Assembly: GCA_964016885.1 (NCBI GenBank)
Contig: OZ024758.1
Coordinates: 21,204,001-21,268,000, forward strand
Direction: 5' to 3'
DNA: 64,000 nt
Source of the DNA: Eledone cirrhosa
Lineage: Eukaryota
Shown here piece by piece: positions 3,317 through 56,200 of this stretch (position 1 is its first letter; each line of letters opens with the position of its first letter). The position numbers and the translations under genes are program-made. Below the pieces are notes generated by a model. It had not been told where the DNA came from and did no database searches. It saw only the letters and a program-made list of their open reading frames with translations.

Positions 3317-3930
3317 CATATATATATATATATATATACATATATATATATATATATATACAACCCTAAGTATTGAGTACTTTGGTGCGTTATGGTCCAC
3401 CTGGTTCCTTACCACATTTCCTTCGTTATATATATATATATATGTATATATGTGTATATATGTATGTATATATATATGTATGTATATATGTATGTATGTA
3501 TATATGTATGTATATATATATATGTATGTATATATATATATGTATGTATATATATATGTATGTATATATATATGTATATATGTATGTATAGATGTATGTA
3601 TAGATGTATGTATAGATGTATGTATATATGTATGTATATATGTATGTATATATGTATGTATATATGGTATGTATATATGGTATGTATATATGGTATGTAT
3701 ATATGGTATGTATATATGGTATGTATATATGGTATGTATATATGGTATGTATATACGGTATGTATGTATGTATGTATATGTATATATGTATGTATGTATA
3801 TGTATATATGTATGTATGTATATATGTATGTATGTATATGTATATATGTATGTATGTATATGTATATATGTATGTATGTATATGTATATATAAGTATATA
3901 TATATATGTGTGTGTGTGTGTGTGTGTTTG
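3317..3930. repeat. Compound (TA)n/(TATG)n/(TG)n microsatellite containing a family A tail fragment at 3362-3427 (+)
   Basis: Direct reading; insert ccctaagtattgagtactttggtgcgttatggtccacctggttccttaccacatttccttcgtt matches the tails at 31057 and 38172 in reverse orientation. Confidence 0.9.
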
Positions 3931-3979
3931 AAAGAGAGAAACAGGTGGAGAGACAGGGAGAGAGTGAAGTGTGTAAGTA

Positions 3980-4206
3980 TTACTTCGAACTTACATATTC
4001 AACACATCCTATCGTTCAACGATTCTGAAATTAAATGCCAAAAATAATGGCTGTATTTTAAAGGGTACGTCAAACCTATTTGTAAAACTGTTATATATTG
4101 TATTTTGTCTGATGAAGGCATACCAAAATTTAATGTGGTATCCCTGAAATATGTATAATGAAATAAATATGGTTTTATAAATATAGTTTCCATTTATTAA
4201 TATCGT
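3980..4206 (+). mobile_element. Penelope-like pLTR fragment, family C
   Basis: Homologous to 47480-47642 and 55836-55995; ends ttaatatcgt followed by (TA)n; carries an HHR. Confidence 0.7.
4101..4165 (+). ncRNA. Type I hammerhead ribozyme, intact core (family C)
   Basis: stem I tattttgt/atgaaata; CTGATGA 4109-4115; stem II aggCatacca/tggtatCcct (9/10 bp); GAAA 4146-4149; stem III ata-tg-tat; AUA cleavage triplet. Confidence 0.85.
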
Positions 4207-4276
4207 ATATATATATATATATATATATATCAAAATAAAGATCCGAAGGCATAGTATAAATTTCCAATCATTTTAA

Positions 4277-4354
4277 TCACGACACATGTTTCAATAAAAG
4301 ATAGATCGATCGTGTAGCCATGTTCGATTATTACTGTTCTCGTTCGTCATGTGA
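4277..4354 (-). ncRNA. Degenerate hammerhead ribozyme
   Basis: Minus strand tcac-ATGACGA-...-GAAA-catgtg-TC-gtga: stem I tcac/gtga and stem III aca/tgt are intact, C3 is mutated to A, stem II is poorly paired. Confidence 0.5.
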
Positions 4355-4457
4355 AAATAAATAGTCTTCAAATTATTGATATGAGGGAGAAAATTAACGG
4401 TGTTACCTCACAGAGTTTACATATATATATATATATATATATATATATATATATATA

Positions 4458-4575
4458 CAGGGTGGCCCAAACGTCGAAATACATAAAAAAAAATTGTTTT
4501 ATAAGAAAAACTGTATTCTAAATAAATATGGAAACTTAAAATGTTCCTATATATTGCAACTTTTGAGCCATCCTA
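4458..4575. mobile_element. Tc1/mariner-type MITE
   Basis: Imperfect TIRs cagggtggccca / tgagccatccta, flanked by TA in a (TA)n tract. Confidence 0.6.
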
Positions 4576-4841
4576 TATATATATATATATGTGTGTGTGT
4601 GTGTATTCGTGTGTATATATGTGGATATGCGTGTAATGATATTTATATACATACATACATCCAATGATGTTGACTTGTTCTTCTTTTTGGTAAATATCAT
4701 CTTGGTTAAGAGAGTGGGACTGGCTTTGTGCAGTGCCTTTGCTCACTATAAAAGCTTCACGGCACAGGCATTGCTTTATATCTGGAGATCTCTCTGCACT
4801 TGTCGTCACATGGTACCATGGGCCCAGCACTATGTGTCAGT

Positions 4842-5005
4842 AATTGTCACAAGTGTAGTGTTTGTACCAGAGTTTTCAAGTCGCTGGCTGGACTAAAAAG
4901 TCACACTCGTTCAGCGCATCGGTAGGGGTTCTCCTACATGGATATAAAGTAGTGGCCGTACTCGAAAACGAGTTGGCAGCCACCATACATACATACATAT
5001 ACATA
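4842..5005 (+). mobile_element. RTE-like LINE 3' end with C-terminal C2H2 finger and (ATAC)n tail
   Basis: NCHKCSVCTRVFKSLAGLKSHTRSAHR* (stop 4923-4925), short 3' UTR, then atac repeats; some RTE ORFs end in such a finger. Confidence 0.6.
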
Positions 5006-52696: not shown

Positions 52697-52850
52697 CGAA
52701 GGAAGTGTGGTAAGGAACCAGGTGGGCCATAACGCACCAGAGTACTCGATACATTGGGTAGTAATGTGGGTAATAGGAAAAGTTTCAGGACCCCGACGAC
52801 AGAGTTCAAGCCGTTTCGACAGCTATTTCTGGACGGTCCTGATTCTTTTC
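52697..52850 (-). mobile_element. Family A HHR 3' half plus tail (diverged)
   Basis: gaaggaagtgtggtaaggaacc...gaccccgacgacagagttcaagccgtttcgacagcta. Confidence 0.8.
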
Positions 52851-54817
52851 CTATATATATATATCGTGTAGACGCGTTCTTGAGACTAGTAAAATGAGGT
52901 ATCCTCTTGATAAGTCGACAGACCTCGCAGGGACTCTATATCTTTATGATGTATTGTTTTTGTTTATGCCACGAAACTACGTAGTCGAGGAATCTAGGAG
53001 CAGTTTAGGTATGAGACATTTTATTACTAATTATATCTAAATGTTTCTTCTCTCTTCATAATATATATATATATATATATATATATATATATATATATAT
53101 ATATATATATACAGACAAAGAGAAAGAAGAATGACAGATGGGGGGGGGGTAATCGAAGACAGAGCTGAAATCAAAATGAAAGGGTGATAACATATATAAG
53201 TTTATGTAGATTAATGTATCTTCCAGTAAATGAAACATATCAAAGTAATGCATTTTATATCTTGCTGGCAAAATTTATTTTTGTTACTTATCTATGCATT
53301 CAAAGCAATTGTAAACTAGACTCATTTTTTACAGAATCACGTGATATAGAATTATACATTCATTAAAAACCAAACAGTTGTATTATCGCACATAAATGTT
53401 ATGATGTTCAGACAAAGTAGTCGCTCAAGTTATTTATAAATACACCGTTTACTCTCATAGTAAGTATTACAACTCTGCACCGCGAAATAAATCGTGTGAA
53501 GTACAGGGGAACCAACGCTATGACCTCTCTTGTAAAGCCGCCATTTTAACATAACTAGTTCTTTGAATCTGTACCACGTCTAGCAGATTTTAGGAATAGT
53601 TGATGTATTAACGGGAGCTATAAAACAGAAATCTACCATAAATCACCATATTGTATGATTAGATGAAATTTCATTTCTTCTTTTTTCAGAGAAAAACTAA
53701 AGTGAGTTATGTTGCCTAATGAATCAAATCACAAGCTTCAGGAAATGTAGAAGGAATAAATTTCATTTAAGTGATTATTATGGCTGATTTGTTAGATTTA
53801 TTATTAATGTCTTATATTCAATGAAATATTTCATATTTGGTTTAGTTTGCAGTGTTTTCTTGAGATATGTACACGTGTAAATAAACGCAGTCACACGTGC
53901 AGACACACACACACACACCAACGCCCTCCGATATATATATATATATATATATATATATAAATACGCACATATATATATATATATATATATATAAATACAC
54001 ATATATATATATATATAAATACACACATATATATATATATAAATACATACATATATATATATATAAATACATATATATATATATATATATATATAAATAC
54101 ACATATATATATATATATATATATATATATAAATACACATATATATATATATATATATATATAAATACACATATATATATATATATATATATATATATAA
54201 ATACACACATATATATATATATATATATATATATATATATATATATATATATATATATATATATAAATACACATATATACATATATACATATATATACAC
54301 ATAATTAAATAAGTAAATATATATATATATATATATATATATATATATATATATATATATATATACATATACTTGTGCCTGACTCCGTGTGTCTGTGTGT
54401 TCCCATATTAACATCTACTTTTACATACTTGCTTAACTAGACATATATATGCATAAAATGGACATACACACACACATATAAATATATATGTGTGTATACA
54501 TGTGAAAATCCACGTGGTTGTATATGTATCTCTACTTAAAGAAGTATTTATTAATTAGATTTCACCTTCAAATAAAAAATTGAAGGCGGTATTAAAGACC
54601 GGGAATACGCATTATTTATTAGTGAAATGAATCATGGTCACTGACCGAAAAGTTTCGCTTATAACAGCTCATCAAATGAAATTGTATATCTGTAAGTTTT
54701 TCCCCCTCTCTCTGCTTTTCTCTCTCCCCATATATATCTATATATCTATATATATATGTATGTATATATATATATATATATATATATATATATATATATA
54801 TATATATATATATTTAT

Positions 54818-55165
54818 AACAAAGGAAATGTGGTAAGGAACCAAATGGACCATAACGCACCAAAGTATTCAATACTTCGGGTAGTAGAGTGGGTAGTGGG
54901 AACAAGTATGACCCCTACGGCAGAGCTCAAGCCGTTTCGACGGCTAAGTCTGTACTAAATAAGAATGTTTAGCCTGGTAAATAAATAGCCGAACTTCTCA
55001 GAGGGTAATTCCTTATATGGGAAGATAATAATTGTATCTTCTCATATAAGGAATTACCCCCTCAGAAGTTCCGCTATTTATTTACCAGGCTAAAAATCTT
55101 TATTTAGTCCAGAATTAGCCGTCGAAACGGCTGGAGCTCTGCCGTCGGGGTCATACTTGTTCCTA
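54818..55165. mobile_element. Longest family A copy: tail plus ~265-bp palindrome holding two complete HHR-like folds
   Basis: Arms 54899-55028 and 55034-55163; + arm acccc-CTCAGAA-..cgcta...tagccgtc-GAAA-cggc...gccg-TC-ggggt (55056-55151); - arm core CTGAGAA (54911-55006). Confidence 0.8.
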
Positions 55166-55639
55166 TATAAATATATATGTCACTTGAACTAAAACCTGTT
55201 GAGAAAGTGACTTCCTTGTTCAATCATCTTACCTTAAGCATAACATTATTTGTCTAAGCGGACAGTACTTGTTTTAGGAGTCGCAGAAACCCAAATGCTG
55301 GATTTTACCAACCATCCAGGGATCCGGTTAATTTTTTTCAATCACATATTTTTTTATTTGTTTGACCCGAATTACTTGGTCGTTTCTATGGCCGTGCGGA
55401 TGACGGTTTAACCATCGTCTCAGTGTGTTTGGCCTTTAACGTATGTTGTAGCTCTTGTTCGTCAGAATTATTGAGCGCTTCCCACGCATCTCGGAAGTTG
55501 TTTTTCACTAATTCCAAAGCCGAAATACGATTCTCGCGAATTTATATTTGTATATATATATGTGTGTGTGTATGTGTGCGTGTGTGCGTGCGTGCGCGTG
55601 TGTGTGTGTGTATGTGTGTGTGTGTGAATCAGTCAGCAC

Positions 55640-55820
55640 TCCGGCATTTGAGTATTGCCGTGTCAATCGCCAATTCCAGACTGGGACTAGCGGTTGAAAC
55701 GGCAAGGGCTCAGCCGTCATAGTCGTAAACTAATTCAGTTAACCATTTTCTACTACCCCAAGTGTCGAGTACTCTGATGAGTAAGGGTCTAACCTGTTTC
55801 TAACTATATCCATCCGGATA
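55640..55820 (+). mobile_element. Diverged family A-like HHR 3' half plus tail
   Basis: GAAAcggcaagggctcagccgTC ... ctactaccccaagtgtcgagtactc. Confidence 0.6.
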
Positions 55821-55835
55821 TATATGTATATATAT

Positions 55836-55995
55836 GGTTGCATTATTTAAGGGTATGTCAATATTTATTAATAAAACTGCTCTATATTATATTTTATCTG
55901 ATGAAAACACACCATAATTTAACTTGGTGTCCTTGAAATATGTATAATGAAATAAATATGGTTTTATAAACATAGTTTCCAATGGTTAATATCGT
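55836..55995 (+). mobile_element. Family C pLTR with HHR at 55890-55954
   Basis: tattttat-CTGATGA-aaaCacacca...tggtgtCctt-GAAA-tatgta-TA-atgaaata; 8-bp stem I; one extra stem II mismatch. Confidence 0.8.
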
Positions 55996-56129
55996 GTATA
56001 TATATATATATTATTTATTTATATATATATATATATATATATATATATATATATATATATATATATATACATATATAGATATATCTATATAAATATATAG
56101 AGAGAGAGATAGATAGATAGAGATATATA

Positions 56130-56200
56130 TCGCGGGTTCAATCGTCGGAAACACAGTAAATAAGGTACTCAATACATATACATGGCAGAGTATAAATATT
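56130..56200 (-). mobile_element. Family D tail fragment
   Basis: cgggttcaatcg...cacagtaaataaggtactcaatacata...agtataaat, like 52436-52495 and 48817-48883. Confidence 0.65.

Follow-up and report, generated by a model that had tools for sequence, protein, structure and literature searches.

Otherwise dissimilar hammerhead ribozyme families in one region of the Eledone cirrhosa genome share the 9-mer TTGAGT(A/G)CT in their 3' tails, which raises the question of what this shared word is and what maintains it. The region, called the window here, is a stretch of 64,000 nucleotides (nt) of contig OZ024758.1 (assembly GCA_964016885.1, positions 21,204,001 to 21,268,000), to which all coordinates refer and from which most of the evidence comes; it is AT-rich with many (TA)n and (CA)n runs. 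An initial reading made from the letters alone (the sequence-only reading) had listed the sites and proposed a cis signal, either for recognition by a Penelope-like element (PLE) protein or for RNA 3'-end formation. We describe the 9-mer as the 3' strand of a larger predicted hairpin with a fixed bulge, located in the tails of non-coding PLE insertions, and propose that the hairpin is probably a protein-binding site. Family labels (A, A2, A3, F, F2, X1, X2, G, C and H) follow our own scheme and not the letters A to G used earlier.

All 15 sites listed before were recovered with the same position and strand, 10 as exact matches and 5 with one mismatch. Exact TTGAGTRCT occurred 12 times in the window against 1.03 ± 1.08 expected, and 0 of 100 shuffles reached 12. 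With one mismatch allowed, 36 matches were found against 28.2 ± 5.0 expected (6/100 shuffles reached it); this count is near background, so the variant sites rest on homology to exact-match copies and not on the motif. The sites are not independent, since nine of the 15 belong to group A (3373, 8009, 17971, 31103, 38218, 49035, 52741, 54864, and 55765) and three to family F (48856, 52468, and 56164), with single sites in X2 (47662), G (47848), and C (16122). Wherever a body was attached, the motif lay 3' of the hammerhead in the ribozyme sense, in agreement with the sequence-only reading. Two exact 9-mers beyond the 15, at 13076 (plus) and 59760 (minus), were accompanied by neither hammerhead nor hairpin and are likely chance matches, of which about one is expected:

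13076..13084, plus strand: exact 9-mer that has neither hammerhead nor hairpin and, like 59760-59768 on the minus strand, is probably a chance match

Two tandem copies of ~220 nt (74%) were seen at 59374-59831, one of them containing the 9-mer at 59760.

Sharing among families was analyzed in one post-cleavage region each for seven families (A, F, X2, G, C, H, and X1), with the doubtful hammerheads at 52290 (minus), 26517 (plus), and the 49092/49609 pair excluded. The best 9-mer with one wildcard was TTGAGT.CT, present in five of the seven regions (look-elsewhere corrected, 1/3000 shuffles, p 0.0007), and in four of seven (p 0.035) when another F copy was the representative. Exact sharing of 5-, 6-, and 7-mers among the same families was not significant (p 0.73, 0.25, and 0.93), the plain 6-mer result being explained by a shuffle null dominated by AT-only words. 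Mean identity among eight representatives was 0.75 in the motif, a value high by construction because the motif was the alignment anchor, against 0.34 upstream and 0.32 downstream. The downstream flanks reached z ≤ 1.8 in 25 of 28 family pairs (exceptions A-A2 4.9, F-F2 4.7, and F-C 3.4); tails of different families are thus not alignable end to end, most pairs being at chance, and the expected conservation peak at the motif exists. The accompanying claim that the motif is more conserved than the pseudo-long terminal repeat (pLTR) holds against the non-core pLTR but not against the hammerhead core, which is also conserved.

The signal had been described as a 9-mer; it is instead part of a larger predicted bulged hairpin, a fold that family H keeps without the 9-mer. 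The predicted structure runs ACUC, upper stem and loop, UU bulge, GAGU, with the 5' partner ACTC or a G-U-compatible variant 13-54 nt upstream of TTGAGT. The bulge is always on the 3' side, as TT or TC, and the upper stem differs per family and is still paired (A TACT/AGTA, X2 CAA/TTG, G CAG/CTG, C CGTAA/TTACG, and F TGC/GTA). The following elements and tails belong to the analyzed set.

31106..31129, minus strand: predicted bulged hairpin of family A (ACTC/GAGT, TT bulge, TACT/AGTA) in element 31058-31249, composed of inverted arm, hammerhead 3' half, and 78-nt tail
38221..38244, minus strand: near-identical copy of the family A hairpin, in element 38173-38380
17974..17993, minus strand: family A hairpin with shortened loop, in element 17927-18058, where the inverted arm is fused directly to the tail
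52697..52862, minus strand: family A element with motif TCGAGTACT at 52741; the lower stem is damaged and the local fold favours the small hairpin discussed below
54819..55164, minus strand: longest family A element, with core CTGAGAA at 55001 and predicted cleavage at ~54916; its motif variant TTGAATACT at 54864 disrupts one lower-stem pair
55627..55818, plus strand: A2, a diverged A relative, with hairpin 55747-55770, TC bulge, and G-U pairs
57515..57650, plus strand: A3, a covariance-model match outside the training set, with A-like hammerhead 3' half, 5-bp (base pair) upper stem TACAT/ATGTA, and weak lower stem GTAC/GCGT
3363..3426, plus strand: A tail alone, its 5' end within the hairpin loop
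49022..49088, plus strand: A-like tail alone, its 5' end ~5 nt before the bulge
7963..8076, minus strand: likely chimera of an X1 3' piece (8023-8076) and an A tail, joined 4 nt before the bulge, no hairpin
48817..48985, minus strand: family F element with hairpin 48859-48877 (ACTT/GAGT, 2-bp upper stem)
52425..52644, minus strand: family F element with weak hairpin 52471-52489
56125..56250, minus strand: family F element with hairpin 56167-56191 (TACTC/GAGTA, TGC/GTA)
14439..14498, plus strand: F2, an old F-like tail beyond the sites first listed (ACTC/GAGT, TGC/GCA)
47313..47728, plus strand: family X2 direct pLTR and tail, with hammerhead 47544-47592, hairpin 47648-47667 (TACTC/GAGTG, CAA/TTG), and inverted arm 46284-46605
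47790..48144, minus strand: family G element, its inverted arm with core CTGATGA, hairpin 47851-47875 (TACTC/GAGTG, CAG/CTG), and an alternative fold lower in energy
15915..16206, plus strand: family C element with hammerhead 15955-16004 and long hairpin 16068-16127 (ACTC/GAGT, CGTAA/TTACG)
9485..9820, minus strand: family H element without the 9-mer, with hammerhead 9750-9679 and hairpin 9571-9594 (GTTC/GAAC, TGCA/TGCA)

By eye, the tail at 49022 may start with a 10-nt inverted piece (8/10 match).

Covariation was assessed in 12 rows cropped by hand so that the stems line up, with C, 38218, and three truncated tails left out. In total, 96.3% of 80 cells were paired against 89.2% in shuffles (0/500), two-sided changes occurred in five of seven pairs (1/500 shuffles), and slid controls were 18-54% paired. 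The one-sided changes comprised eight G-U and one C-A, which points to the sense strand as the folded one. The small hairpin noted before (aagtat-tga-gtactt) was rejected, as in the same rows its pairing (74.6% of cells) barely exceeded that of shuffles (72.3%) and no pair changed on both sides. Among 34 TTGAGT hexamers, the strict bulged hairpin was present in 8 of 13 in tails and in 0 of 21 elsewhere (p 7e-5); the five tail hexamers without it comprise three truncated inside it and two F copies with a 2-bp upper stem.

Shuffling of the upstream 60 nt gave p values of 0.04 for A, 0.09 for X2, 0.08 for G, 0.005 for C, and 0.05-0.38 for three F copies, combined to 0.0009 with the median F, a test that is not blind because the descriptor was derived from these same families. 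For two families added after the idea had formed, H (same bulge) gave p 0.008 and F2 at 14453 gave p 0.17, combined to 0.01. A3, a third later addition, was matched by the covariance model with an expect value (E) of 0.09; the sequence upstream of its hairpin resembles that of A (z 6.0 and 7.1), and its 5-bp upper stem is changed. The model missed family C, which has a long loop; another match, at 37724-37763 (E 0.07), was discarded for want of resemblance to G, H, or X2. Family H alters both sides of two pairs. The loops of G and C share sequence (p 0.008), and their upper stems differ yet are both paired; shared loops with different but paired bulge-proximal bases would be hard to obtain without selection.

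Reads of four sequencing runs were aligned to one 756-nt stretch (15457-16212) at 80% likeness; run X20 is a restriction site-associated DNA sequencing (RAD-seq) library with 150-nt reads from fixed sites. Among the 40 of 195 variants listed, those of family C lay at 16076, 16078, 16094, 16099, 16107, 16116, 16134, and 16143, and none fell within the lower stem, the bulge, or the four proximal upper pairs; 16068-16075 and 16117-16130 held no listed variant, and one contig had a 1-nt gap at 16069. X20 read ends at 16062 and 16065 resemble the limit of an element immediately 5' of the C hairpin but were rejected, since RAD-seq reads start at fixed sites, and a drop in contig depth near 16030-16055, which does not reflect copy number, was not used. 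Taken together, the conserved fold in the tails is probably real.

The elements that carry the motif are PLE-type hammerhead elements with the motif within the tail, as the sequence-only reading held; they are non-coding PLE insertions in (TA)n/(CA)n. Tailed elements consist of an inverted pLTR arm, a direct pLTR with a type I hammerhead or its 3' half, and then a tail absent from the arm. Alignment recovered inverted arms, 20-121 nt long, in all 10 elements tried, and the X2 arm measures 328 nt and is 95% identical. The arm start is a fixed point within each family, at which tail-less copies stop and microsatellite takes over (X2 at 4204 and 55993, A at 28685 and 8703). The tail is optional, is found at one end only, and measures ~65-135 nt here against 30-40 nt in print; the element ends lead into (TA)n or (CA)n, the insertion bias expected of such elements. 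Full matches to the type I hammerhead descriptor were obtained in X2, C, A (55001), and H, hammerhead cores were seen in X1 and G, and the short copies of A and F retain no more than the 3' half. An Rfam scan of the window returned no hammerhead family, solely microsatellite-driven microRNA matches, among 150 of 242 matches listed. Hairpin-bearing elements contained no open reading frame (ORF), unlike an autonomous Neptune-type PLE, which has RT (reverse transcriptase), zinc-finger linker, and C-terminal GIY-YIG in one element. Self-comparison of the window revealed no head-to-tail tandem array of these units of the sort that defines non-LTR (long terminal repeat) retrozymes. Helentron-derived or miniature inverted-repeat (MITE-type) DNA elements have terminal or subterminal inverted repeats and no ribozyme; this class was rejected, as the inverted repeat here stops 65-135 nt before the 3' end and includes hammerhead parts. 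The A2 arm (55627-55705) is 78% alike to the direct copy and maybe comes from a sister family; its helix III loop yields TTGAGTATT at 55648, which does not count as a tail motif.

Not all hammerhead elements carry the motif, as one family ends in microsatellite without it:

15463..15643, plus strand: family X1 hammerhead element ending without the motif, likewise 25484-25681, 26596-26823, and 45994-46213

The motif was absent from all four intact X1 copies in the window. In the reads, microsatellite followed X1 from 15643-15645 onward, both in run X20 (1308 and 2587 reads) and in contigs from three runs; this is the usual end among the matches listed, and a minority tail could be hidden in the consensus. 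As this usual end lacks the motif, site 8009 likely represents a fusion of an X1 piece with an A tail. Additional hammerhead-like cores, belonging to other families, were observed at 52290-52150 (minus), 26517-26565, 49092-49222, and 49609-49743, with no hairpin seen behind them. Between the X1 and C elements lies a high-copy piece, 15645-15900, with a frame that presumably resembles the end of the reverse transcriptase of a long interspersed element (LINE).

What the hairpin does is best read, as first proposed, as a cis signal for the PLE protein; we put the probability that it is the binding site positioning a Neptune-type RT-endonuclease on the RNA at roughly 0.55. From arm start to hairpin the distance is 0-9 nt in A, A2, F, and X2 and ~26 nt in G; in H it is unclear because of a T run. 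The PLE protein would cut (TA)n DNA and prime complementary DNA at two RNA sites flanking the hairpin. The first, 0-9 nt (A, A2, F, and X2) or ~26 nt (G) 5' of it, would give rise to tail-less copies and inverted arms, and the second, ~40-90 nt 3' of it, to tailed copies. The lower stem and bulge would be fixed for protein contact and the upper stem free, serving shape, and families borrowing one protein would keep the hairpin while the remaining pLTR drifts. In three A-type tails (3363, 8019, and 49022) the first base is 4-10 nt ahead of the bulge, as might result from a stall at that point, short pieces being detectable only if they hold the motif. PLE proteins are the closest relatives of telomerase RT among transposons. 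A wider version, to be taken as tentative, would make the tail a protein-binding RNA module whose bulged hairpin recruits a telomerase-like RT-endonuclease priming on both sides, and would account for tails, inverted pLTRs, and cross-family chimeras.

The scheme has a parallel in the PLE of Anolis, whose protein, according to the available text of PMC11167929, cuts and extends both DNA strands and starts at two internal RNA sites with the tail between them; by analogy, we infer that the arm start and the 3' end here correspond to these two start sites. In that system RNA 3' of the start sites is needed, and a binding motif was hypothesised within ORF nt 20-172 (PMC11167929, available portion). 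A stem with a 3'-side bulge can be drawn by eye at ORF nt 121-147 of the template printed in PMC11167929, just 3' of a start site and within the required region; its sequence differs and it is a lead only. The hairpin principle might span PLE clades. Inverted arms have been explained instead by self-priming in the portion of PMC3846280 available.

A candidate for the type of protein involved is found in the window itself.

29660..30766, both strands: broken coding PLE piece, with RT thumb on the minus strand and zinc-finger linker and GIY-YIG on the plus strand

The thumb is thus inverted against the part with the cysteine linker and GIY-YIG. The piece ends 40 nt past the stop in (TA)n, and neither a full hammerhead core nor a hairpin was seen. 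It is 42-53% identical to nine longer proteins, with the same domain order in the five examined, and the Pfam match to these relatives is weak (GIY-YIG E 0.0012 in P0006). Judged by domain order and linker rather than by a tree, it is of the Neptune type, and so is the candidate partner protein. The 3' end of the piece is found again at 8797-8862, where it is fused to an inverted family A arm (8699-8874, between microsatellites). This fusion suggests that one machinery handled both, and the junction suggests template switching between A and coding PLE RNAs; no significant likeness was detected between the coding 3' end and the start of the A tail (z 1.4). A protein-alignment search identified four loci in metagenome contigs (L001-L004) and no locus in viral ones; a hammerhead is reached by L001 alone, L002-L004 stopping short of the pLTR. 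A 24-nt A-tail pattern had no match in viral or metagenome contigs. By eye, L001 has a type I hammerhead at 1680-1780 behind its Neptune-type ORF, with (TA)n ~50 nt later and no hairpin; the piece after this (TA)n presumably resembles another PLE ORF.

Several observations weigh against the hairpin as a protein-binding site. The 12 covariation rows are related and were cropped to align the stems, and their kinship makes the shuffle test look stronger than it is. From that alignment RNAalifold recovers the lower stem only, single hairpins are weak (folding z -0.8 to -1.2 for five and -2.2 for C), and lower-stem pairing probability is ≥ 0.5 in just 6 of 13 copies; G folds otherwise, A3 prefers another register, and two A copies favour the small hairpin. 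Frequent C variants at 16076, 16078, 16107, and 16116 disrupt distal upper pairs. The loose descriptor had 31 matches against a background of 20 ± 3.7, which makes it unusable alone. As X1 is abundant without the motif, the motif is not required for every insertion. No hairpin follows the Neptune-type ORF and hammerhead of L001, and no intact partner element with such a tail was found in the window or in viral and metagenome contigs.

That the hairpin acts on the RNA itself, in transcript 3' end formation, product stability, or hammerhead folding and without PLE protein binding, we consider unlikely. It does always lie 3' of the cleavage site and on the sense strand, a second small hairpin is an alternative fold open to some copies, and Anolis hammerhead cleavage needs protein help (PMC11167929, available text). 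Yet the distance from cleavage site to bulge varies from ~40 to 118 nt and that to the 3' end from ~45 to 95 nt, no fixed landmark is closer than the arm start site, and the fixed sequence of lower stem and bulge would fit protein contact.

Still less probable is a relic of the common descent of the tails that has no current function, with the pairing partly a product of selection by the analyst. Other tail sequence is indeed shared by A-A2, F-F2, F-C, and G-C, the minimal hammerheads of X2, G, and C are related, independent families are few, and stems are broken in several copies. Mere descent is opposed by the flanks, which are at chance in most family pairs while TTGAGT.CT occurs in 5/7, by the 5' partner strand kept across distances of 13-54 nt, and by H, which changed on both sides of two pairs.

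A signal read as DNA by the GIY-YIG endonuclease, with the tail in the integration intermediate or target, seems quite improbable. According to work cited in the available text of PMC11167929, the endonuclease of Drosophila virilis Penelope needed the tail to recognise plasmid DNA; the eight G-U/G-T against one C-A one-sided changes, however, favour a folded sense strand, and a duplex site needs no distant complementary strand. A coding remnant, with the PLE tail overlapping an ORF start and the bases reading [IV]-E-[YC], is very improbable, for although I or V and then E stand in one frame in 10/10 representatives, the TC and GAA variants are synonymous, and the tail overlaps the ORF in Anolis and rotifer PLEs (PMC11167929 and PMC3846280, in the parts available), the reading fails because the 5' partner strand occurs in all three frames relative to the motif and stops occur in 7 of 10 windows of 40 codons, and neighbouring residues are unconserved.

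The protein-binding hairpin would bear on how PLE RNA is selected and internal starts are chosen, for which the sole in vitro study narrows the binding motif to ~150 nt (PMC11167929, available text). A hairpin of 20-60 nt with a fixed bulge and natural compensatory variants is compact enough to serve in binding, probing, and priming assays, and offers a marker for which non-coding hammerhead families share one partner protein. If true, it would be the first defined PLE recognition element, one that a group of parasite RNAs has in common, and it would provide a portable tag to direct PLE-driven insertion into (TA)n DNA. Tails, hammerheads, and non-autonomous derivatives of PLEs were known before. 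No report of a shared motif or fold in PLE tails was found in the literature surveyed, with subscription papers outside its scope; the octopus repeat paper PMC13282606 makes no mention of hammerhead, ribozyme, or hairpin, and the available part of PMC8969392 holds nothing on a shared PLE-tail motif or fold. The hairpin also suggests that accounts of PLE tails, given in terms of length, overlooked a shared fold.

Two other features of the window were recorded. An abundant family of ~190 nt occurs at 2258-2441, 10744-11247, 27579-27981, 33100-33733, 57236-57382, and 62988-63312, frequently in pairs arranged in tandem and in one case as a short inverted pair (10786-10955); with its tRNA-like head we take it to resemble a short interspersed element (SINE). 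A pyrimidine-rich minisatellite of ~1.5 kb with strong strand skew lies at 20345-21835.

Among known systems, LINEs and their SINEs (L2 and CR1 types) share 3' stem-loops that let unrelated bodies use one reverse transcriptase; that stem-loop sits just before the terminal priming repeat, whereas the hairpin here would lie between two PLE start sites. Non-LTR retrozymes, as presented in the available text of 10.64898/2026.07.22.740005, are likewise non-coding type I hammerhead elements related to pLTRs and proposed borrowers of the PLE protein; they form head-to-tail tandem units, unlike the single or inverted units with tails here, and no recognition element is named in that text. The PLE insertion layout of direct and inverted 5'-truncated pLTR, optional tail, and microsatellite targets has been described (PMC8557442, PMC3846280, and PMC4209133), and the elements here agree with it in the one-end tail, the direct and inverted pLTR, the minimal type I hammerheads, and the microsatellite targets. 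In the available portions of the same papers, tails are given by length and position and ascribed to endonuclease resolution, with no conserved sequence or fold, unlike here. There is also a likeness in structure and activity to the Poseidon PLE of Anolis carolinensis, with its pLTR hammerhead, AT-rich targets, optional tail between two ends, and stem-loop near the start site, where RNA 3' of the hammerhead is needed for activity (PMC11167929, available text). That element belongs to the Poseidon clade and has a tail of 30-40 nt inside the ORF, compared to the ~65-135 nt and non-coding tails described here, and no cross-family structure is reported in the accessible part of PMC11167929, whereas in the window several families share one fold.

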